Origin: Narcine bancroftii
Lineage: Eukaryota
Reading direction: 5' to 3'
Length of the DNA: 64,000 bases
Assembly (NCBI RefSeq): GCF_036971445.1
Contig: NC_091469.1
Span: 302,188,001 to 302,252,000, forward strand
The notes under the pieces were generated by a model. That model was not told the origin of the DNA. It did no database searches and was given only the letters and a program-made list of their open reading frames with translations. Shown here in pieces: positions 2,566 through 58,285 of the stretch. Numbering within the stretch: the first letter of the stretch is position 1; every line of letters begins with the position of its first letter. Position numbers and translations under genes: made by a program.

Positions 2566-2702
2566 GGGGGCATGGCAAGATGGCGTAGAGTCTAGACGTG
2601 CGATCTCAACCTCTCTGGCCAGACTTTTAAATACCCGTTTTTTAACCCTTTGTTTTCAAGATTAAACTTTTTAAATTTTAGTTTAAAGTATTAAGGAATT
2701 AT

Positions 2703-3986
2703 TATGGCCACTAATGGTAAAAAGACTAAACCTTGAGTTCATAAGAAGTTACATTTTTGAAGTGTTGAAAATCTGGGGTCTAGATGACTTGAAACAGCCC
2801 CAGGCTCAATTTCTTCATTGCCTAAACCCCAAAGAAATGGACCCCGATTTGGAAAGCCTTTCGATTTCAATGGAGGGAGCATGCAGGAAGACGACTCCAT
2901 TGTTGGAAATGCACCAGATAGCATTTCAATCTGAAGAAATTGTTTTTCTTTGCGAATTGATGAGAAAACAACAAGATACAGGGGAACACCAGCGGCGACC
3001 CCCTGAAGAAGTTGGGGTGCCTTCTGTTGAGTTGCAGCAGGAGCTGCAGTTACCTTGTTCTCCCACCATGTCAGGGAGAGCAGAGCTGAGATTTACCGAT
3101 TCACAGTGTGTGCAATTAAATGCAGTTATTCAAGCTGTTATAAAACCTTTGTTGACATCTCAAATTAATGAAATGGTTCAAATGAATGCTGGTATGAGTT
3201 CAGAATTAAATATGGTTAAGACATGTGTGGATGCATCTTTTGAAGAATTTTTTAAAAATTCAGACTGCTTTTTTGGACTGTAAACAACAAGTGACTTCTA
3301 ACACTGAAAAAGTGTTGAAGGTGGAAAAATCAGTCATAGAATTAGGAGAACGTGAGAAGGAACTAGAAAGAAAAATAGATTACTTGGAGAATCAAAGCAG
3401 AAGGAATAATGTGAAAATTGTTGGTTTGCCAGAAGGTATAGAAGTACAAGATCCTTTTTGTTTTTTTAAAGACTGGATTCTGCAAATATTAGGGCAAGAA
3501 TTTTTCTCTGGGGGATTGGCACTGGAAAGAGCCCATAGAACTTTAAGAAGAATACCTTCAGCTGGTCAACCACCGTGACTGGTAATAATTCGACATCTGA
3601 GTTATTTGGATAGAGAAGCAATACTTCGACTTGCAGTACAAAATGCGAGACAACGACAAATCCCATTATCGATTCAGAATAGCAGAGTTTTTTTTTATCC
3701 TGATCTGAGTCAAGATGTCATTCAACATCGACGTCGATTCAATCCAGTTAAAGAAGTTTTGTGGCATAAAGGTTATAAGTCTACTTTTCGTTACCCTGCA
3801 GTATTGAAGGTGTTTTATGGAGGCTATCAATTTCGGTTTTTTGAAACTGATTGTGAAGCAATGATTTTTGCTGATTCATTGCCAGATATAAGAGGACAAA
3901 GATGTAGTCCACCATTATCTCCTAAAGAAAAATCTGGTAGCTCTGGAAACAGAAGAAATGGCAGAAATGGGAAAAACGGGAATTGA
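2703..3986 (+). pseudogene. L1 ORF1p (coiled coil, RRM, CTD), frameshifted
   Basis: ORF pieces 2714-3283, 3225-3578, 3606-3986; motifs LENQSRRNNVKIVGLPEGIE, LERAHR, FFYPDLS, FRYPAVLKV. Confidence 0.9.
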
Positions 3987-4376
3987 AAGAGTCTGCCTCC
4001 TTCTGAAATGGGATCTTCGAGATTGGAATCTTTTGGATGAAAAGAAGAATTTTCTTTTTCTTACTCTATTTCTTTTGTTATTATGATATTTTGATGTTAT
4101 TGATTGTTTGGCTGGGGAGGGGGAGATTTCCACTAAGTTCTTTACTAGTCATCAGCCACTGGTGGGTGACCCACACCCAATTTTTGTTTAGGAGATTACT
4201 ACCTTTTGGAAGATTTTTGGGGGGGGGGTGGTTTCTTTTTTTTTCCTTTTTCTTTATTATTTTTTTTTTGTTTTTTTTTAGTTTTTAATTTGTGATTTTT
4301 TTTATTGGAGGGCCTATATATAGTGATTTGAGTTTTTACATAAAGATATTATTGGTATTTAGTAATAATAGTAGAT

Positions 4377-5265
4377 ATGTCAAAGTTGACATTTGCTACT
4401 TTTAATGTTCGAGGATTAAATAGTAAGATTAAACATAAGCAAGTCTTGACATATATTAAGAAAATGAAAATTGATATTGCCTTTTTACAAGAAACACATT
4501 TGAATGTGAAGGAAAGCGTGAAATTAAAAAGGGATTGGATAGGGCATGTATATTCTTCTTCATTTAATTCTAGAGCTAAAGGTGTAGCAATTTTGAAACA
4601 TAAAAATTTATCTTTTGAATTATAATCAATGGAGGAAAAGGCAGGATGTGTTCTTAAATTTAATTGTAAGAGTTTTAGTGAATTTTGGACTTTACTTAAT
4701 ATTTATGCCGCAAATGCAGATGATGAAGTATTTATTTCAGATGTATTTTTATGTTTGGGACAAGCTAATGATAATATTTTAGTTGGTGGTGATTTTAATT
4801 GTGTTTTGGAACCTTTATTAGATAAATCTCCGAAGAAATTTAAAAAATTCAAGATAGCAGTTCAGGTTCAAGCGTTGATGAAAGATCTTAATTTAGTAGA
4901 TATTTGGAGACGTCATAATCCGACAGAGAAATATTTTTCCTTTTATTCATCTAGACATGAATCATTTTCAAAGATTGACTTTTTTTTTAGTATCGGCACA
5001 TTTACAAGGGAAAATACAACAAGCGGAATATAAAAGTAGGGTGATTTCAGATCATTCTCTGTTATATTTTACATATGAAACCTGAGAAAATTTAAATAGC
5101 TTATTGTTGGAGATTCAATAGAATGTTGTTAAAAATATGGAATTTATTGATTTTTTGAAAAAAACAAATTAATTTTTTTTGAAAGAAAATTCTAATTCTG
5201 TTCAAAGTAAGTTTGTATTATGGGATGCTATGAAACCCTATTTGAGATGTCAAATAATTAGGTAC
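4377..5265 (+). pseudogene. L1 ORF2p N-terminal APE endonuclease (disrupted)
   Basis: FATFNVRGLN, FLQETH, KGVAIL, GGDFN, SDH motifs; ends WDAMKPYLRCQII at the Gypsy junction. Confidence 0.92.
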
Positions 5266-5494
5266 TGTAGAGCTCATCGAAAGAACCAAAGACTTGTTGA
5301 TCCAAACCAAGGCTTTTATTAGCAAAACACAGGAGCTCTTCACAGGTGGCCGACCAGTCCGGAATGATCTGACCTGGCTAGGGACACAACCCTTTAAGGC
5401 TTGGCTAAGCTCTCAGCCAATCGCTGTAAGCACAGTCATTACATACTCTAGATACTGTAACCATATACATTGGTGATAGGTCTGTTCTATCACA
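5266..5494 (-). repeat. 3' LTR (229 bp)
   Basis: Direct repeat of 9840-10081 with about 10 substitutions and a 13-bp deletion; preceded on the minus strand by the purine tract AAGAAGGGGTGAA (about 5495-5507). Confidence 0.95.
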
Positions 5495-5564
5495 TTCACC
5501 CCTTCTTGGAGAACTGACCCTGGGGTAGAAGGGCTGAAGAGGGAGAAGGGAAGGAAGGGGTAGG

Positions 5565-8500
5565 TTAAGGACTGTAGCGGTCAGGGGGTCTGACCAACCG
5601 CCGTGGTGCTGGGATTGGGGTTGCTGGAGTGGTGTCGCCAGCGGGCTCGGCGGGTGCGACCGCTCCTTCGCTCAATTCCCCAGCCGTGTTGTCGGCAGGG
5701 TGGCCCGGGTGGTTGGGGTGCTGTTGGTCCTTCTGTTCCGGCACGGGGCCTGGGGAAGAGTTGGGGAAGGTTAGGTTGGGGGGGTTGCTGGGCCTACCAC
5801 GTCCTGAGCTAGGTCCCACACGGAAACAGTGTCCTCCCACCCATCTGGGAACTCAACATAGGGGTAATGCAGGTTCATGTGGAGTAGAGTCACTCGGTCG
5901 ACCAAGGGGTCGTTCTTTGAGTGCCGGACATGGCGTCGCAAAAGGACGGGGCCAGGGACGGTGAGCCATGCCGGTACAGTGGTTCCTGATTCGGATTTCC
6001 TCGGGAAAAGTAACATCCTTTCGTGGGGGATGGAATTTGTTGTGGTACATAAGAGGGAGCGGTTGGAGTGTAAGGCACTAGTGAGAACCTCCTGCCAGTG
6101 AGAGGTGGGGAGAGCCAGTGTAACCGCTCTCCAGATGGTGGCATTCTCCTTCTCGACCTGGCCATTACCACGTGGGTTATAGCTGGTGGTCCTGCTTGAA
6201 GCGATATCACACTTCAGAAGGTACTGTTGCAGCTCTGCGGTAATGAATGAGGACCCCCTATCACTGTGGATGGAATTGGGGTACACGAAAATGGCGAAGA
6301 TACTGTGAAGAGCCTGTATCACTGAGGTTATGGTGGTGTCTGGGCAGGGCACAGCGAACGGGAAGCGGGAGTACTCATCGATGGCCATAAGGATGTAGTT
6401 ATTACGGTTGGTCGACGGTGGGGGCCCCTTAAAGTCTATGCTAAGACGCTCGAAGGGGCGGGTGGCTTTGATAATGTGGGAGTTCCCCGGACGGAAGAAG
6501 TGGGGCTTGCATTCAGTGCACACCGAACAGGCTCGGGTCATGGAGCGAATCTCCTCGACTGTTCAGGGTAGGTTGCGCGCCTTCACAAAGTGGGCAAACC
6601 TAGTGACCCCTGGATGACAGAGCGCCTCATGGAGTTTCTGTAGTCTGTCCATCTGTACGCTGGTGCACGTCCCCCTGGAGAGCACGTCAGGTCGGTACAG
6701 GATGTCATAGTTAAAGGTGGAGAGTTCGATTCTCCATCTGGCGATTTTGTCATTTTTTATCTTACCACGCTGGGTGTTGCTGAACATGAAGGAGACCGCG
6801 CGTTGATCAGTTAACAGTGTAAAGCGCCTCCCAGCGAGGTAATGTCTCCAACGACGCACCGCTTCAACTATGGCCAGGGCCTCCTTCTCGACCGAGGAAT
6901 GTCTACTCTCTGGACGCTGGAGGGTTCTGGAGAAGAAGGCTACAGGCCAACCGGCCTGGTTCAAGGTGGTGCTAGGGCGAAGTCGGATGTATCGCTCTCG
7001 ACTTGAAACGGGACAAACTCATCGATCGCGTGTAGTGTTGCAGCGGCAATGTTGGATTTGATTCAATCGAAAGCCGCTCTGGCTTCGGTCGAGAGGGGAA
7101 AGGAGGTGGTCTTGATAAGAGGACATGCCTTATCGGCGTAGTGTGGAACCCATTGGGCATAATATGAGAAAAAGCCCAGGCAGTGTTTGAGCGCTTTCTG
7201 GGTATTGGGGGGGGGGGGGGGGGAAGTAAGTCCATTAGGGGACGCATGTGGTCAGGATCTGGCATCACTACCCCGTTCTCCACCACGCAACCTAGAATAG
7301 AGAGTCGTGTGGTCTGGAAGACACACTTGTCAAAGTTATAGATCAGGTTCAGCCGAATGGCAGTTTGAAGAAATTTGTCTTGGTTGGCATCATGGTCTTG
7401 CGTGTCGTGGCCGCAGATGGTGACATTGTCCAGATACGGGAAGGTAGCGGTTAGCCCATTCTCGTCCACCATACGGTCCATTTCCCGCTGGAAGACTGCG
7501 GCACCATTCTTGACCCAAAATGATACACTGAAAATTGATGCAGCCGCCCATTCGCTTCAAAGGCCGTGAATGGTCGGTCCTCACAGCGGATCGGGAGCTG
7601 GTGGTAGGCTGAACGTAGGTCAATGGTGGAGAATATGTGGTATTGGGTGATCTAGTTTACCACATCCGTGATGCGTGGCAGGGGGTACGCATCCAGGAGC
7701 GTGAAGCGGTTAATGGTCTGGCTATAGTCAACCACCATCAGTAGCTTTTCCCCATTCTTGACAACTACCACCTGGGCTCTCCAGGGACTTGAACAGGGTT
7801 CGATGATGCCCTCATCCAGCAATCTACGCACCTCATTCCTAATGAATTGCCTGTTTTCGTAACTATATTACCGACTTTTGGTGGCCACATGCTTCCAGCC
7901 AGGGGTGAGGTTTGCGAAGAGTGCTGCGGGGCAATCCAGAGTGTGGAAAGGCCGCAGGAGTGGCCCTGGGGTATGGGGGCGGGTTGCTTGGGTGCTTCAG
8001 GGGTGGGGCGATGGCAGACCGAGAGGGGAGCGTGGGGTCCCCCAAAGTGTAGGGACACTGTTCGAAACTGACACTGAAAGTCTAATCCCAGCAACACTGG
8101 GGCGCACAATTGGGGAAGGATGAATAATTTGAAGTGGGTGACCATTACGCCCTGTACTTCCAGCATGGTGATGCAATACCCCTTTATCCCGGTCGAGTGC
8201 GACCTAGTCGCTAATGAGATCCTCTGGGTAGTGGGGATAATGTCAAGTCCCAAACAGAGGGCCAGATCTGGCCGGATAAAACTGGCAGTTGACCCAGAGT
8301 CAAATAAGCAATTGGTGTAGTGTCCATGCACTTTAATCAGTTCCATTACTTTAGTGAAGGGATGAGAGCATTGCTGATTTAGTGTTATAGAAGCAGCCAC
8401 TGATCCTGTTGACAGGGGAGTTCCGCGTGTTGATGTCACGCAACGGGATGACGTCATAGATGCAGTCAACGCTGGAGAAGCAGATTGGAGGTACTCCCGG

Positions 8501-9805
8501 AGGTGCTGTTGTGGCGGTGTCGGCGGATGAACAGTAAGTAGTGGGGATTGTTGCTCACGGTTGACGGTGGGTAGGTCGTCGGTCACAGCGGTCGGGCCCC
8601 AGCGGTCGTCAGCGATGGACGCTAGGGTGAGTACCTGGTTGGCCTCGGCGGATCCCCAGTCGGTTGCGGTGGCCGCACCGGAGGCGGCATGGGCAGCAGC
8701 AGCAGGGGAGCGGGCAGCAGTAGTGGTAGCTTCGTCTCCGGGGCTGGCTTTGGCGGTGGTAGCGGCAGCAGCAGCAGCGGTAGCATCAGCCCCGGGGGTG
8801 GTCGTGTCCGTGGCAATAGCAGGCTCTACAGTCGGGACCGAGGCCTGGTCGATTGTTCCGCAAGGGGGCGAGAGGCGGGCCAACATCATGGTTGCGAGTG
8901 TGGGCTGCTCCTTCTGGGTTCGGCGTCTCCGTGACATCAGGCGTTGCCGTGCAGGGGAGCCCTCGCTGTCATTGGGCGAGAGCTCTGGGGAAGAAGAGTT
9001 TGAATGGGATAGTGGCGGTTGGGCTTCACACGAGGCACTGTGTTTGCAGGTGGCCATTTTAGACCTACAGACTGCAGCAAAGTGGCCATTTTTAAGGCAC
9101 TTCTGGCACCTGGCTTTTCTTGCTGGGCACTGGGACCTGTTGTGCTTGACCCTCCCGCAGAAATAACATTTTGGTTCGCAGGGGGCAGTGTAGCAGCAGA
9201 CGACAGGCCGTCAGTATCTCGGGGGGTGGTAGGGTAGAAGGGCACTCTACTCACATCAGAACGAGGGGTCCAGTCCCTAGAGAATTCGTTGGACTTTAAG
9301 GCTGCATCCTCCATTGTGATTGCAATCCGGGCCACGTCCTCTAGTTTTTCTACCTCTTGTTTGAGCAAGCACAGCCTCACTTCGTTCGAACGGAGCCCGG
9401 CCACAAAGGCATCCCGGACGAGATCGTTTGTGATCAGGGCAGCAGTTTTGTCCACTCAGTTACAGTCCTTGCCCAAAGCCTTTACTACTTGTAAATATGC
9501 CCTGCTGGACTCACCGGGCTGTTGCTTCCTCGACGCAAGCATGAGCCGGGCATGAACTCTGTTCATTGGTTGATCGTACAGTTATTTCAGTACCTTTATG
9601 GCTGCGGTGTAAGTGGTCTCATTCTGGATGTTCTCGTAGACTCTCAAGGACACCATAGACAGCAATGCTGTTTGACACTGGTTATCCTCCTCCACCTCAA
9701 TGACCCTTAGTAAGTTTTCAAAGTTTAACAGCCAGAACTTAAAGGCTTTGAAGGCTGTAGCTGGGGTCGATGTCAAGTTTTTTCTGGCCGAGTCAGACGC
9801 TCCAT
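5565..9805 (-). pseudogene. Gypsy gag-pol polyprotein, frameshifted
   Basis: Gag MERLTRPE.., RKQQPGES, LVRDAFVAGLRS; CYFCGRVKHNRSQC and CQKCLKNGHFAAVC; protease CLFDSGST; RT FPYLDNVTICG; RNase H EKEALAIVEAVRRWRHYL, FTLLTDQ; integrase LHEALCHPG, CSVC, IDFKGP, HSDRG, GNGQVEKEN; C-terminal RPPDRYSP. Confidence 0.93.
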
Positions 9806-9839
9806 CCCTTTTTAAAAAAATTCATTTTGCTAATAAAAT

Positions 9840-10081
9840 TGTTGAGCTCGTCAAAAGAACCAAAGACTTGTTGATCCAAACCAAGGCTTTTATTAGCAAA
9901 ACACAGGAGCTCTACACAAGTGGCCGACCAGTCCGGAATGATCCAACCTGGCTAGGGACACAACCCTTTAAGGCCCAGACAGTAGGCGTGGCTAAGCTCT
10001 CAGCCAATCGATGTAAGCACAGTCATTACATACTCTAGATACTGTAACCATATACATTGGTGATAGGTCTGTACTATCACA
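9840..10081 (-). repeat. 5' LTR (242 bp)
   Basis: TG...CA termini, AATAAA on the minus strand near the U5 end; gag ATG lies 34 nt downstream (9805). Confidence 0.95.
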
Positions 10082-12834
10082 GTTATATTCATAAAATAAA
10101 AAAGAATCGATTAAATCAGAGTCTTGAATTAGAGAAACAGATCGATGAGTTAGGAAAGGAATTTCAGAAAGATGCTACAGAAGATCAAAAAATAGAATTA
10201 TCTAGGCTGAATTGAAATATAATACTTTGCAATCTTATCAATTTTAATGTGTGATTAATAGGACTAAACAATGGTATTATGAATGGGGAGAGAAAGCACA
10301 TAAGGTATTGGCATGGCAATTAAAGAAAGAACAGATATCAAGGACTATTAATGCTGTTAGACGGAATTCTTTTATTACTTATAAACCTCGTGATGAATTT
10401 TATAAAAAGTTATATACATCTGAAGGAAAACAGGAAACATGATCGATTGATTTTTTTTTAATCACAGTTGAATTTACCGATATTAGAGGATGCAGATATA
10501 CAGGGGTTAGAAGAACCATTTACTGATTTGGAAATTAAAATGGCTATGGTGGAAATGCCGGTCGGTAAATTGCCTGGTGATGATGGATATTTCGTTGAAT
10601 TTTATAAAATTTTTTATGATGATTTATCTACAGTGTTTGGGGATGTAGTACGTCAAGTTGGAAAACATTATGATTTACCAGAGTCTTGTTCTAGTGCTTT
10701 AATTACAGTAATTCCTAAAAAAAAAAGATAGAGATCCTTTGAAGGTATCTTCATATAGACCAATTTCGTTGTTAAATGTATATTATAAAATAATAGCTAA
10801 AATATTAGTGAATAGATTGGCTATTCATATTGACCAAACAGGTTTTATAAAGAATAGATGTGCCTCAGATAACATTTTGCGCGTGATTAGTTTGATTAAT
10901 AGGTTTCGACAATCTTTATATCATCTGATGGTGATATCTTTATATGTAGAAAAAGCATTTGATAGAGTTGAATGGAATTTTTTGTTTAAAGTTTTGGAGA
11001 AATTTAAGTTTGGTCCTTCTTTTATTGGTTAGATTAGGGCTCTATATAGTAAACAGGTAGCTAGAGTATTGAGAAATGGTTTGATTTTGGAATCTTTTAA
11101 GTTAACTCGATCAACTCGTCAAGGTTGTCCTTTATCACCAGCTTTGTTTGCGTTAGTGATTGAACCTTTAGCACAGTTGATAAGACAAAATACACAGATA
11201 CAAGGTATGAAAGTTTTAGATGAGGAGTATAAAATTAATTTATTTGCTGATGATGTATTGGTGTATTTAATAAACCCAGCTCAGTCACTTTTGCATTTGA
11301 AAGAATTTTTAATAGAATATGGATGTCTTACTGGATATAAAGTTAATTGGGAAAAAAGTGAAATATTACCGGTAAGTGAAGGAGATTATTCAGTTTATAA
11401 GAATATTATTAATTTGAAGTGGACTGATCGAATTAAATATCTGGGTATAATTTTGAATGTTAATTATCAATCTTATATAAATTAAATTATGCTCTGTTAA
11501 TGAAAAAAATTAAAACTGATTTGATTAAATGGAAAGATTCACCTATTAATTTAAGGGGAAGGATAAATACAATTAAGATGAATATCTTTCCGCGTATACA
11601 ATATTTGTTTCAATCTATTCTGTATTTACTTGATAAAATTTTTTTTCAAGATTTAAATAAAATGGTTAGGGAGTTTTTATGGAGGGGTAAATTTTCAAGA
11701 GTAGTTTTGAATAAATTAACATGGAAATATGAGTTAGGGGATTACATTTACCACATTTTCAAAATTATTATGAAGCAGCCTAACTTAAATTTATTAGTTC
11801 CTTGATGGATTTGGCACGGCCTCCTAGTTGGGCTAAAATTGAGATGGCAAGCATTTCTTAATTTGAAATACATAATTTTTGTTTAGGTGGAATATAAATT
11901 TGTTACAACAATATAATGTGCCTATACTAAAACATGTAATGAAGTTATGGATAAAGAAAAATAAAATGATAGGTTCTAGGGGTAAATTATTGGCTTTGAC
12001 TCCATTGTATAATAATCAACTTATTTCTTTTTCAATACATAATCAAAGTTTATTGCATTGGAGATTTAAAGGTGTGAAAAATTTGGGAGATTGTTTTAAA
12101 GAGGGTAAATTTTTATCTTTTAATCAGATGAGGGAAGATTTTGGTATTGATAAGAATTCTTTATTTCTTTATTATCAAATTCGATCTTTGGTAAAATGTA
12201 TGTTTGGTAGAGATATGATTTTACATAAAATGACTAAATTTGAGACTTTTCTTATGAAAGTACCAGAGAAGAGTTATATTTCATTTAAGTATCAAATATT
12301 ACAGGATGGTATGGATGAAAAGGGTTGGGATAGATCTAAAATTAAATGGGAAGCGGTTTTTTGGTTTTACTTTTTCTGAAGAGGATTGGTTAGATATCTG
12401 TTATGATAGTGTAACTAGATTGATAAATGCACATTATGAAATGATTAATTACAATTGTTTACATTAATTATATTTGACACCAGAAAATTTTTAAAAATAT
12501 GGTTTTTATGAATCAGATTTGTGTTTTAGATGTGAATAAGATTAAAATAGTTTTAGATCCAACAGTATTTTTATTGGGTCATTTGCAACCTCTGAAAGGC
12601 TTGGGATTAGATAAGTTTCAGCTTGCTTTTGTATATTTAGCTTTATCCGTAGCGAAAAAATGTATTGCTAGTACATGGAAAGATACAAATATGATTGATA
12701 TTAATAGATGGCATAATTATATCAAATATTGTTTAAAAATGGAAAATATTACATATGTTTCACATGATAATTATATTTTTTTAATTAATAAGTGGCTGTT
12801 ATACTCGGAATATTTACATTTCAATTTATATTGA
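10082..12834 (+). pseudogene. L1 ORF2p RT and C-terminal region (many frameshifts and stops)
   Basis: YEWGEKAHKVLA, PGDDGY, YRPISLLN, EKAFDRVEW, RQGCPLSPALF, LFADD, IKYLGI, AKKCIASTWK; the frame continues from 5260 if the Gypsy element and a 5-bp TSD are removed. Confidence 0.92.
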
Positions 12835-31285: not shown

Positions 31286-31416
31286 CTCAATATTCAATCT
31301 TTCCAAATGCTTATAAGTAGTAGAGATTCCCATAGTGGTGTAAATACAAGTCAATGATCTTGCCACCATCTCAATCATTCCAGGCCAGTTAATATTCACC
31401 ATCCAGTGACTTAGAT

Positions 31417-31748
31417 CAGTCGTTTTCAATTTTTTTCTTTCCACTGACATACCACCTTAAGTAATCCCTATGCCATTGGTGCTCTGTGATAAGTAAGGGA
31501 TAACTTAAAATGGTATGTGAGTGGAAAGAAAAAGTTTGAAAACCAGTTTTAATCATACCTAATTGACTTGTTATGTGCACGGTTTCAAAACTCCAAGGGA
31601 AATGGGCCAATGACAATTTTTCTCAAGCAAAATATTTCATTAACAATTGGGTCTACAATAATGGTTCCCAACCTTTTTTCCCCACTCACACCTTAAGCAA
31701 TCCCTTAAGATGGTAAGTGAGTGGAAAGAAAAAGTTTGGAAATCACTG
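31417..31748. mobile_element. Compound hAT MITE, copy 1
   Basis: CAGT..ACTG termini, two internal palindromic modules, TSD ACTTAGAT/ATTTAGAT; homologous to 57866-58241. Confidence 0.85.
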
Positions 31749-32179
31749 ATTTAGATAATTTTCCATCCATTTTAGCAATTTACTTTTAGATCTGTACCTT
31801 TGGGCAATTTGGAATTCCTTGCCTAATTCAAATGCATCACAGCTGCACATATCACATAGCTAACAATATCTTCTTTTCCTCTACAAAGTCCAGTAAGCTT
31901 TGGAAAAGAAAATTCACTCTGTCCTTCTCTACCATAATATACTCATCCAGATCTTTAAATGTGTTCATGACATATGCTCTAGTCAGCTATAAGCAACAAA
32001 CATTTCAACCATTTTACCATTTGAAGTTCAAATTAGTTTATCAAAAAGTTTGCTGCAACCTTTCCTTGATTTTTGATTTATTCCATCACATGCATATTAT
32101 TTTAATTACATTATTTTTGTATTCATCTCATGATAAATCTTATGTGGTTTATTTGAAAGTAGAGAGATGTTTATTTGAG

Positions 32180-46118: not shown

Positions 46119-46340
46119 TGTGATACTTTGGGATCCTATCACCACTGTATATATTTGCATATAGTGATAATGATTGGCTGAGAGCCATAGCCACTCCTAC
46201 TGGCCAGGTCACAAAGGGCTGCACCTAATCAGATCCAAGTCAGTCTGGACTGGTCGACCTTGAGGTACTACGCTCCAGTCTTTTGTTAATAAAAGCCTTA
46301 GTTTGAGTCAACAGGTCTTTGAGTCACTCGATGTGCTACA
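46119..46340 (+). mobile_element. Solo LTR related to the 5266-10081 Gypsy
   Basis: TGTGATA...CTACA; shares GATTGGCTGAGAGC, GGACTGGTCG and TTTTGYTAATAAAAGCCTT blocks with the reverse complement of 9840-10081; perfect 5-bp TSD ATCTC at 46114-46118 and 46341-46345. Confidence 0.92.
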
Positions 46341-53750: not shown

Positions 53751-56080
53751 GGACCGGATGGCATACCTGGTCTTGTGCTTAGAGCCTGCAGAGACAGATC
53801 AGTTGGCTGGGTCTTTATGGTTATTTTCAATCTGTCCCAACAAACTTTAAAACTGCTACAATCGTGCCTGTGCCGAAGCATTCTACTGCCATGAGTCTAC
53901 ATGACTACCGTCCAGTTGCACATACTCCTGTCATCGCAAAGTGTTTTGAGAGGTTGGTTCTATCTCACTTGAAATCTTGTTTGCCTGCCACTATGGATCA
54001 ACATCAATTTGCCTATTCTACTAACAGGTCAACAAAAGATGCCATTTCAACAGTGCTACACTCTACTTTGACTCATCCTGATCAACTTCATTCTTGTATT
54101 AGAATGCTATTCATGAATTACTGTTTGGATGTCAACACTGTTGTACCATCAAAGCTGATAACCAAACTTTATTTGTCCAATATCAGCCCATTCCTTTGTA
54201 ACTGGATTCTGGATTTCCTTACTTACAGACCTCAATCTGTTAAGCTGGGCAATATTTTTCTTCCTCCAGTCTCACCTTGAACACCAGAATGCAGGATTGC
54301 ATGCTGAGCCCCCTTCTGTATTCACTTTTTTCCCTCTGTGTTCCTATGTATAGTACAAACTTAATGATTAAGTTCTAACGTGCCATCACAGTGGTAGGCC
54401 TGATTACAGGGGATGAGGAAACGGCTGATAGGGTGTGGTGTGCTGAGAACAATCTGTTACTCAATACCCAAAAGACAAAGGATATCTGCAGATTTTAGAT
54501 AGCCAGGAAGCCACACTCATGTGGTGATGGAGTGTTTACAGAACTTTAAATTCCTGGGGATCCATATCCCTGCTGATCTCACTTGGTCCTTGAATTCATC
54601 AATTTTGATCAAAAAGGCACTACAATATCTTTATATACTGAGATATATGCGGATAATCCACCTCCACTCAAGAATACTGCTGGATTTCTATAGAAGCATA
54701 ATTGAGAGTGTGCAGACATACAGTATTTCGTTGTGGTACAGAGTGTAAGGCACTCTAGTGGGTAATGAAAACTGGCCAATGGATTGTTGGAATGCCATTC
54801 CCTATCATCAGATCTATCTATAGGGAACAATGCTTGGGCAGGGTGAGAAATATTATCAAAGACTCAACACACCCTAACCATGAACTATTTACTCTCCTAC
54901 CATTGGACAGAGACTAGAGGAGCCTTTGCTCGTGTACCACTAGGCTTAAAAAGAGCTTTTTTTTTATGAAGCCATGACAATGTTAAACACTAACTTACGG
55001 CACTGAGTGGTGCTGCACTTGAATTTTATAATCAGTAATTTTTAACAATTCATTTTAGAATAGTGTAGTTTTAATTGGATACACTTTGTTGTATGTTTTG
55101 ATTGTATGTTTTTTTTTAATCGTACCCCCCAGCTCCCCACCATGACTACCAGCACCCCCACATCTCCATCGGGCACACAAAACTCAAAATGGTCAACCAT
55201 TTTACCTATCTCGGCTGCACCATTTCATCAGATGCAAGGATCGACAACGAGATAGACAACAGACTCGCCAAGGCAAATAGTGCCTTTGGAAGACTACACA
55301 AAAGAGTCTGGAAAAACAACCAACTGAAAAATCTCACAAAGATAAGCGTATACAGAGCCGTTGTCATACCCACACTCCTGTTCGGCTCCGAATCATGGGT
55401 CCTCTACCGGCATCACCTACAGCTCCTAGAACGCTTCCACCAGCGTTGTCTCCGCTCCATCCTCAACATTCATTGGAGCGACTTCATCCCTAACATCGAA
55501 GTACTCGAGATGACAGAGGTCGACAGCATCGAATCCACGCTGTTGAAGATCCAACTGTGCTGGGTAGGTCACATCTCCAGAATGGAGGACCATCGCCTTC
55601 CCAAGATCGTGTTATATGGCAAGCTCTCCACTGGCCATCGTGTCAGAGGTGCACCAAAGAAGAGGTACAAGGACTGCCTAAAGAAATCTCTTGGTGCCTG
55701 CCACATTGACCACCGCCAGTGGGCTGATATCGCCTCAAACCGTGCATCTTGGCGCCTCACAGTTCGGCGGGCAGCAACCTCCTTTGAAGAAGACCGCAGA
55801 GCCCACCTCACTGACAAAAGACAAAGGAGGAAAAACCCAACACCCAACCCCAACCAACAAATTTTCCCCTGCAACCGCTGCAACCGTGTCTGCCTGTCCC
55901 GCATCGGACTTGTCAGCCACAAACGAGCCTGCAGCTGACGTGGACATTTACCCCTCCATAAATCTTCGTCCACGAACCCAAGCCAAAGAATGTATGTAAT
56001 TATATTTTAAATTCCAGTCGAAGCTGATTGTGGTTCAGTGGCTGATCTACCAATACAATGACAATAAAGTGGATCATCAT
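53750..56080 (+). mobile_element. Rex1/Babar LINE (RT to 3' end), with an RTE inserted in its 3' UTR
   Basis: GPDGIPGLVLRAC, VPK..HDYRPVA.TPVIAKCFERLV, QFAY..NRSTKDAI, CNWILDFLT.RPQSV, FKFLGIHI. Confidence 0.88.
55126..55990 (+). mobile_element. RTE-clade LINE, second 5'-truncated copy
   Basis: Open 249-aa ORF 55189-55938 nearly identical to the C-terminal part of 25073-26152; same 3' end. Confidence 0.95.
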
Positions 56081-56974: not shown

Positions 56975-58285
56975 ATGGTTACAGCTCAGCTTTCAACATT
57001 AACATCTCCCTAGTACCAGGCAGCAAGTTAGAAAACCTGAGCCTCTGCTCCTCCCTCTGCATCGCGACCCTTGACTTCCTCAATGGAAGACTACAGTCAA
57101 TGTGGATCGGTAACAACATCTCCTCCTCACTGTCAACTTAAGGATGCTTGCTTCCCCACTGCACTATTCTCTCTACATGCATGATTCTGTGGCTGGTCAC
57201 AATTCAAATGCCACCTATAAATTTGGCAATGGCACAATTGTCAGCAGAAACACAGACACCAATGAGGAAGGGTATAGGAGATTGATTGATCAGCTAATTG
57301 AGTGGTGTCACAGCAACCTGGCACTCAGCATAAGCAAAACTAAAGAACTGATTATTGACTTCAAGAAGGGAAAATCAAGAGAACACAAACCCGACTTCAT
57401 TGAGGAGTCATCAGTGGAGAGGGTAAAGAATTTCCAATTCCTAGGTCTCATCATCTCTGAAAATCTATCCTGGGACCTTTATGTCAAAGCAATCATGAAG
57501 AAGGCTCACCTGCCCTATATTTCGTTAGGAGTTTGAGGAGGTTGGTACGTCACCAAAGACTCTTGCAAATTTCTACAGGTGTATCATGGAGAGCATTCTG
57601 ATTGGTTGCAACACTGTGTGGTGCCAATTCATAGGGCAGGAAAGGGCTACAAAGGGTTGTAATAGAGTTGTCACTTCATCAAGGGCATCAGCAAGAGTGG
57701 TGTCTTAAGAAAACAGGTTCTATAATCAACAACCCTCACCTCACAGGCCATGTTCTCTTCTACTTATCTGTGTGTATGTACACATGCACATACATGCATA
57801 GTGTGCTTATGGATATGTAATTTATAGCAATTATTGCATCTATAATGCAAAATAGTCCTATAGAATAGTGGTTCTCAAGCTTTTTCTTTCCACTCATATA
57901 CCACTTTAAGTAATCCCTATGCCATAGGTGCTCTGTGATAAGTGAGGGATTGCTTAAGGTGGTTTGTGGGTGGAAAGAAAAAGTTTGAAAACCACTGTTT
58001 TAATCGTACCTAATTGACTCGTTATGTGCATAGTTTCATAACTCCAAAGGAAATGGGCCAATGACAATTTTTCTTAAGCAAAATATTTTAGTAACAATTG
58101 GGGTCTAAAGCAGTGAGTCTCAACCTTCCCTTCCCACTCACATATCGCCTTAAGCAATCCCTTACTAATCACAGAGCACCTATGGCATAGGGAATACTTA
58201 AAGTAATATGTGAGTGGAAAGGAAAAGGTTGAGAACCACTGCAATAGCAAAACAACAAATTTCACGACACATGTTCATGACAATA
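56975..58285 (+). mobile_element. Rex1/Babar LINE fragment
   Basis: LSISKTKELIIDFKKG, FQFLGLIISENLSW; AATAAA and (ATTCTG)n tail; compound MITE inserted in the 3' UTR. Confidence 0.8.
57866..58241. mobile_element. Compound hAT MITE, copy 2
   Basis: Modules 57866-57997 and 58111-58241 are each self-palindromic and inverted relative to each other; degenerate TSD CTATAGAA/CAATAGCA. Confidence 0.85.

Follow-up and report, generated by a model that had tools for sequence, protein, structure and literature searches.

A Gypsy element in the genome of Narcine bancroftii probably initiates reverse transcription without a tRNA primer. The window, a 64,000-nucleotide stretch of contig NC_091469.1, contains what is, by its sequence, a decayed member of a widespread animal clade of Ty3/Gypsy LTR retrotransposons. 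Across this clade, the site that starts one base past the 5' LTR lacks the TGG of a tRNA primer site and pairs in a fixed register with a segment of the element's own LTR, and the two sides covary. We put at about 80% the probability that the clade, which stands outside the chromoviruses, uses Tf1-like self-priming from the 5' region of its own RNA, with the LTR segment that pairs with the post-LTR site serving as primer in place of a tRNA.

The window element and its fold-back

The element runs from 10081 to 5266 on the minus strand, within an L1-like reading frame of the opposite strand (Table 1). It has the LTR pair, the polypurine tract, and the order protease-RT-RNase H-integrase of a Ty3/Gypsy LTR retrotransposon; Pfam recovered these four domains in Gypsy order, and the best PDB match was Ty3 Gag-Pol. 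The LTRs differ by 10 substitutions over 229 aligned nt and by one 13-nt indel. The copy is old, is AT-rich at the primer site, and has no clean target site duplication (TSD). Its nearest named protein, N. bancroftii P0009, is an intact single ORF of 1,457 amino acids and is 88 to 90% identical. An Ala/Thr-rich tandem insert lies between the knuckles and the protease (window approximately 8830 to 8640, minus strand); it is longer in P0009 and is missing from invertebrate relatives of approximately 1,200 amino acids.

Table 1. Features of the Gypsy element and of a related solo LTR, in window coordinates
Feature	Position	Strand	Remark
5' LTR, TGT...ACA, 242 nt	9840..10081	-	direct repeat of the 3' LTR
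3' LTR, 229 nt, second copy of the arm at 5314-5327	5266..5494	-	
LTR arm, predicted self-primer, contains AATAAA	9888..9901	-	exact complement of 9825-9838; counterpart in 32/38 elements
GCC directly after the arm; predicted cut between 9888 and 9887	9885..9887	-	[AG]C[CT] after the arm in 25/32 elements; cut predicted from Tf1
Unpaired single A, spacer between LTR end and primer site	9839	-	1-nt spacer in 17/22 relatives whose LTR end is fixed by the 3' LTR
Primer-binding position, without TGG, complementary to the LTR arm	9825..9838	-	
Promoter-like motifs ATTGG (10008-10004), TTAAA (9971-9967), TCATT (9941-9937)	9937..10008	-	read from the letters; start site predicted only
gag-protease-RT-RNase H-integrase, gag ATG at 9805	5565..9805	-	several frameshifts and stops
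Twin CCHC zinc knuckles	9067..9168	-	from translation; most relatives have two
RT motif YLDN, not YxDD	7425..7436	-	relatives YxDN or YxDD
Polypurine tract, end GGGGTGAA	5495..5507	-	relatives similar
Solo LTR, related subfamily, ~75% identical	46119..46340	+	5-bp TSD ATCTC; arm variant, then GCCT...AGGT

On the minus strand, the 5' LTR ends in CTCAACA and is followed by the single A and then by TTTTATTAGCAAAA (9838-9825), which over 14 nt is the exact reverse complement of the LTR arm (9901-9888). Between the two arms lie 49 nt, and 34 nt separate the gag ATG from the LTR. The initial annotation had described this fold-back, the missing TGG, the TTAAA and TCATT motifs, and the two CCHC knuckles, and reanalysis bore it out in each of these points and in every coordinate. 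Against the 14 nt observed, 10,000 dinucleotide shuffles of the LTR gave no match longer than 11 nt, a length reached twice. The stem folded by RNAfold has 15 pairs, one of them G-U; for the whole region, the folding z-score was modest (-1.96), with 7 of 200 shuffles folding equally well. The polarity fits priming, with the 3' end of the arm facing the LTR end. ARAGORN found no tRNA gene within the 64-kb window.

Contigs of four public sequencing runs covering 9650 to 10120 contained no alternative letter at 10% or more in either arm (4/4 runs). Because both arms are the majority sequence in all four runs, the copy is not rearranged, an alternative that had been raised along with the original proposal. 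These contigs also include a sister subfamily in which LTR arm and primer site carry one and the same short replacement, the two sides being read from different contigs.

The CCAAT-, TATA-, and initiator-like motifs of the 5' LTR would set the start of transcription at 9939, and the solo LTR repeats the ATTGG plus a TCAGT at the equivalent place. An inverted repeat centered on TCAT or TCAG is present at the initiator-like motif of both ray LTRs (9956 to 9926, minus strand; 46226 to 46252, plus strand); the arms of this repeat differ in sequence between the two.

Relatives of the element

At an E value of ≤1e-30, 760 matches to relatives were obtained. Named relatives come from Hypanus, Mobula, Scyliorhinus, Actinostola, Trichuris, Armadillidium, and Ischnura, and clusters place others in Acropora, Montipora, Porites, and Pocillopora. 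Two CCHC knuckles and either YxDN or YxDD are found in most of these relatives; the former RT motif is carried by many members of the one clade and the latter by others, intact ORFs included. A 71-protein profile yielded 92 loci, namely the best 80 of the 557 metagenome hits and all 12 of the hits in genome contigs. The 57 loci in which the gag 5' end was accompanied by 70 nt upstream were kept; 35 lacked this, 3 of which were recovered from contig ends. Among 22 relatives with two LTRs, the 3' LTR sets the 5' LTR's end one base before the arm in 17, and the end rule was off in the other 5. TSDs of 5 bp were found at 13 of 22 loci, as at the solo LTR at 46119. Two scans of viral contigs turned up no relative, the Atlas returned generic Gag clusters only, and none of the public runs listed with the element was recorded as RNA.

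Some loci contain a second element. In L006 and L015, a clade member is inserted in another Gypsy element, and in L089, a second element with integrase first adjoins the clade member. The integrase of the L015 host also precedes RT, an arrangement by which the L015 and L089 elements were labeled Gmr1-like (PMC8220671). Twelve contigs from bacterial genome bins (L081 to L092) match these animal retroelements, and most of them are likely host contamination.

Covariation of the pairing across the clade

LTR ends were assigned without reference to the stem in 55 sequences from 29 clusters, after three further loci had been dropped for absence of the end motif. By this rule, the 11-mer following the LTR matches the element's own LTR with at most one mismatch in 23 of 29 clusters, versus 24 of 812 cross-cluster pairings; perfect matches number 18 of 29 versus 2 of 812. 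Under an open rule, the post-LTR 11-mer finds its complement in the element's own LTR, at 0 to 1 mismatch, in 32 of 38 representative elements, versus 8 of 1,140 shuffles, and the 32 pairing elements hold 30 distinct 11-mers. The representatives have a median RT-RNase H identity of 53%, with eight pairs above 80%.

In a MAFFT alignment of 16 hand-picked stem-bearing families, 13 of 16 pairs are altered on both sides and 90% of cells are paired; none of 500 shuffles equaled this, and slid controls reached 32 to 47%. RNAalifold, unaided, returned the same stem. A TGG primer site was found in none of the 32 stem-bearing elements. The four unrelated Gypsy elements in the flanks of the loci all have one (4/4) and fold back over 4 to 7 nt only, where the value for L079 rests on 41 nt of LTR. 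The absence of TGG and the covarying pairing are real and clade-wide, and the proposal of candidate self-priming outside the chromoviruses, made for a single copy, passed the check suggested for it in the relatives. On the evidence of its letters, the primer site is one that could not serve a tRNA 3' end and that tracks the LTR, not a host RNA.

Six of the 38 elements do not reach this level of pairing (L027, L031, L046, L051, L067, and L071), and most of these look decayed. L027 has no fold-back in the 92 nt available upstream and has a TGG after ACAA within that stretch; it is possibly a tRNA-primed member, or merely a short contig.

Anatomy of the arm

Counted from the junction, positions 1 to 11 are Watson-Crick pairs in 248 of 253 cells and G-U in none, in a set that had been chosen for 0 to 1 mismatch. 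Positions 12 to 16, which were not selected on, are paired in 21, 20, 15, 15, and 14 of 23 families, above the cross-family rates of 0.29 to 0.62, and position 17 is paired in 3. The duplex is 11 to 19 bp long and often extends past the likely start on its upstream side. In 21 of 32 elements, the last 11 nt of the arm open with an initiator-like AG (-11/-10), a Tf1-like spacing; the pairing nevertheless reaches -16, and a primer limited to 11 nt at the cap leaves the pairing beyond the AG, at positions 12 to 16, unaccounted for. A TATA motif 18 to 40 nt upstream of the AG was found in only 2 of 32. The initial annotation had placed the start approximately 40 nt upstream of the arm, at variance with Tf1. 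This may hold for the ray LTR; in the relatives with AG at -11, the start may be Tf1-like. The window element departs from that pattern, in having no AG at -11 and in carrying the CCAAT-, TATA-, and initiator-like motifs.

The arm ends in TAAA(A) in 24 of 32 elements, with its final three bases almost invariantly A. A canonical poly(A) hexamer, A[AT]TAAA, is present in 14 of 32 arms, and the stem persists in L028, L040, and L079, whose arms lack it; masking of the 5' poly(A) signal, offered earlier as a function of the stem, does not serve as a general reason for it. At the [AG]C[CT] motif that follows the arm, a hairpin of at least 4 bp opens at the first base past the arm in 22 of 32 elements, versus 26% in shuffles; in the window element, this second hairpin has 3 bp only. 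In 29 of 32, an ATG is found no further than approximately 35 nt from the LTR end. A crude test of the 32 elements revealed no excess over shuffles for the two side duplexes known from the Tf1 pretzel (mean helix, 5.8 versus 5.6 and 4.8 versus 4.7; P ≤ 0.05 in 2 and 1 of 32).

Proposed priming mechanism and alternatives

By analogy with Tf1, the 5' part of the RNA would fold onto the primer site and be cut immediately 3' of the arm, between AAA and GCC in the window element, probably by RNase H. The new 3'-OH would copy the spacer base, U5, and the remainder of R, and the 10 to 30 nt between the cut and the poly(A) site would permit strand transfer. Because the 3' end of the arm faces the LTR end, a cut at this point should yield a primer that copies U5. 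The primer would be copied back into the primer site in every cycle, and such rewriting would explain why the arms are strictly Watson-Crick and carry matched changes. In many invertebrate families, the primer may consist of the first approximately 11 bases, beginning at the initiator-like AG; in the ray family, the start may lie approximately 38 nt further upstream. Hiding of the 5' poly(A) signal may be a side benefit in some families.

The primer might instead be the copy of the arm in the 3' LTR, on the same RNA molecule or on another one, paired and cut at the primer site. This would accommodate the pairing to position 16, upstream of the AG, since those bases are always included in the 3' copy, and the window element does carry the same arm in its 3' LTR; the almost invariant A's at the arm end are likewise compatible with it. 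We consider it improbable, because the AG at exactly -11 suits a 5' end and because cutting the 3' copy would be expected to remove the R needed for strand transfer; such a route for LTR elements is also not described in the accessible part of the literature examined.

The stem could also be regulatory, hiding the 5' poly(A) signal or governing the nearby gag start, with an unknown small RNA or tRNA fragment as the primer. The AATAAA in the arm of the window element, the common TAAA(A) ending, and the short distance from LTR to ATG all speak for such a role, and the weight of the evidence goes against it to a similar degree: the canonical hexamer is missing from most arms, including the three stems named above, a host primer would demand a conserved site where we found 30 different 11-mers, and masking requires neither a fixed register nor arms free of G-U pairs. 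For an old, AT-rich copy without a clean TSD, it was conceivable that the arms match by chance or that a local inversion had put the present sequence in place of an ordinary tRNA site; both are refuted by the shuffles, of which none in 10,000 reached 14 nt, by the run contigs, by the excess of own over cross-cluster pairing, and by the layout shared by 32 of 38 elements.

Comparison with known elements and placement of the clade

Self-primed reverse transcription is described for Tf1/Tf2, Tj1, and the Tf1/sushi chromoviruses (PMC4600332, PMC10085805, PMC11042837), and the accessible literature ties self-priming within Gypsy to this group. The primer of Tf1 ends up as a DNA copy at the cDNA end (PMC11042837), and Tf1 priming uses a three-duplex pretzel with two side duplexes by the primer site (PMC10085805). 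The present clade resembles these elements in having no tRNA site, in the complementarity between part of the LTR and the bases closely following the 5' LTR, in the priming polarity, and in the Ty3/Gypsy domain order. In contrast to them, it has no chromodomain, as had been read from the window copy: none was detected in 11 of 11 full protein scans (P0009 and 10 relatives) or in the precomputed domains of 120 listed matches. It further differs in its twin CCHC knuckles, in the YLDN of many members, in a duplex that often extends upstream of the likely start, in a hairpin stacked at the predicted cut in place of the pretzel, in an arm that in many cases is at the same time a poly(A)-like signal, and in the closeness of the gag start to the LTR.

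For Tcn1 chromoviruses and the plant TAR copia elements Houba and Osr-1, self-priming has been predicted from complementarity of at least 10 bp starting 0 to 5 nt past the LTR (PMC6317226). The present clade shows complementarity of this extent and position in different lineages and hosts. Multiple origins of self-priming were already suspected from the TAR elements, so a further instance is less surprising. Dictyostelium Skipper and fungal GalEa resemble the clade in having no tRNA site, but their post-LTR sequence has no LTR complement (PMC5006619, PMC5445492), whereas that of the clade does.

The initial annotation called the knuckles Mag-type. Twin knuckles and a 5-bp TSD are Mag traits, and the clade shares both. 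The Mag lineage, with its A, B, and C clades, also has short LTRs, a single gag-pol ORF, and a size of 4 to 5 kb (PMC11117352), as does the clade. In RT-RNase H, however, the window element is only 26 to 34% identical to the flank elements of L006 and L079, versus 46 to 63% within its own clade. We take these two flank elements to be Mag-like on the basis of their motifs; both have TGG sites (2/2), versus 0 of 32 in the clade, and they form a separate branch. The Mag label fits the knuckles and the TSD, and the RT-RNase H comparison does not establish it. In a tree of 57 RT-RNase H rows, which has no true root, uses the four unnamed flank controls as its outgroups, and includes no named sequence of a chromovirus, Mag, or Cigr-1 element, support of 1.0 separates the clade from those four controls; the split from L006 and L079 likewise has support of 1.0, on a branch of 0.61.

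The Cigr-1 clade of Ciona, molluscs, and annelids has LTRs of approximately 245 bp, one ORF of approximately 1,210 codons, an echinoderm-type gag, and a non-Mag RT. By description only, this fits the relatives of 1,170 to 1,250 amino acids; if the two clades are one, the priming of Cigr-1 may already be in print. Four peptide motifs searched for were absent from the searchable supplements of PMC6238403 and PMC8556966 (11 of 14 files). Saci2/lennie elements share the single gag-pol ORF, the TGT...ACA ends, and variable primer sites (PMC12471100), but they have a 4-bp TSD, versus 5 bp here, and tRNA primers have been proposed for them (PMC12471100); the accessible part of the supplement to that report contained no primer-site text.

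In our search of the accessible literature, to which Repbase, GyDB, and subscription journals are external, self-priming in an animal non-chromovirus Gypsy clade of this kind was nowhere reported; repeat databases may already note its priming. More tentatively, at slightly less than even odds, we suggest a broader reading. An old, animal-wide, non-chromovirus Gypsy clade of rays and sharks, corals, nematodes, and arthropods may have invented tRNA-free priming independently of Tf1, combining initiator, primer, and poly(A) signal in one segment of 11 to 16 nt, marking the cut with a stacked hairpin and no pretzel, and rewriting the primer site in each cycle, a system that would be undescribed. 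If a non-chromodomain animal clade primes likewise with another RNA architecture, self-priming would either have evolved anew or date back further than supposed, with consequences for a question posed in PMC3601003, whether hairpin or tRNA priming is the older. Such elements would be expected to escape control by 3' tRNA fragments, and annotation of primer sites from tRNAs would miss or mislabel them. The thirty natural arm variants make the predicted cut rule directly testable.

Gene models and other repeats in the window

In Narcine gene models, gag of this family is spliced to host exons (DNAJB13 and collectin-10), and models named BRCA1 and endophilin also begin with gag. Other models splice gag onto the element's own 3' region. 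The splicing takes place at fixed points, which match splice-site-like motifs on the minus strand of the window (GT at 9593-9592, 9514-9513, and 9254-9253; AG at 5751-5750). This is suggestive of an active promoter in the LTR and of spliced gag RNAs that lack the knuckles.

The L1-like element into which the Gypsy element inserted is decayed (approximately 2700 to 12400, plus strand), its endonuclease and RT parts split by the insertion. Two LINE 3' parts, presumably RTE-like and 95% identical to each other, lie at 25343 to 26206 and 55129 to 55990 and have a zinc-finger-like motif at the end. A palindromic repeat of approximately 380 nt occupies 57861 to 58242, with a second, partial copy at 31412 to 31753.
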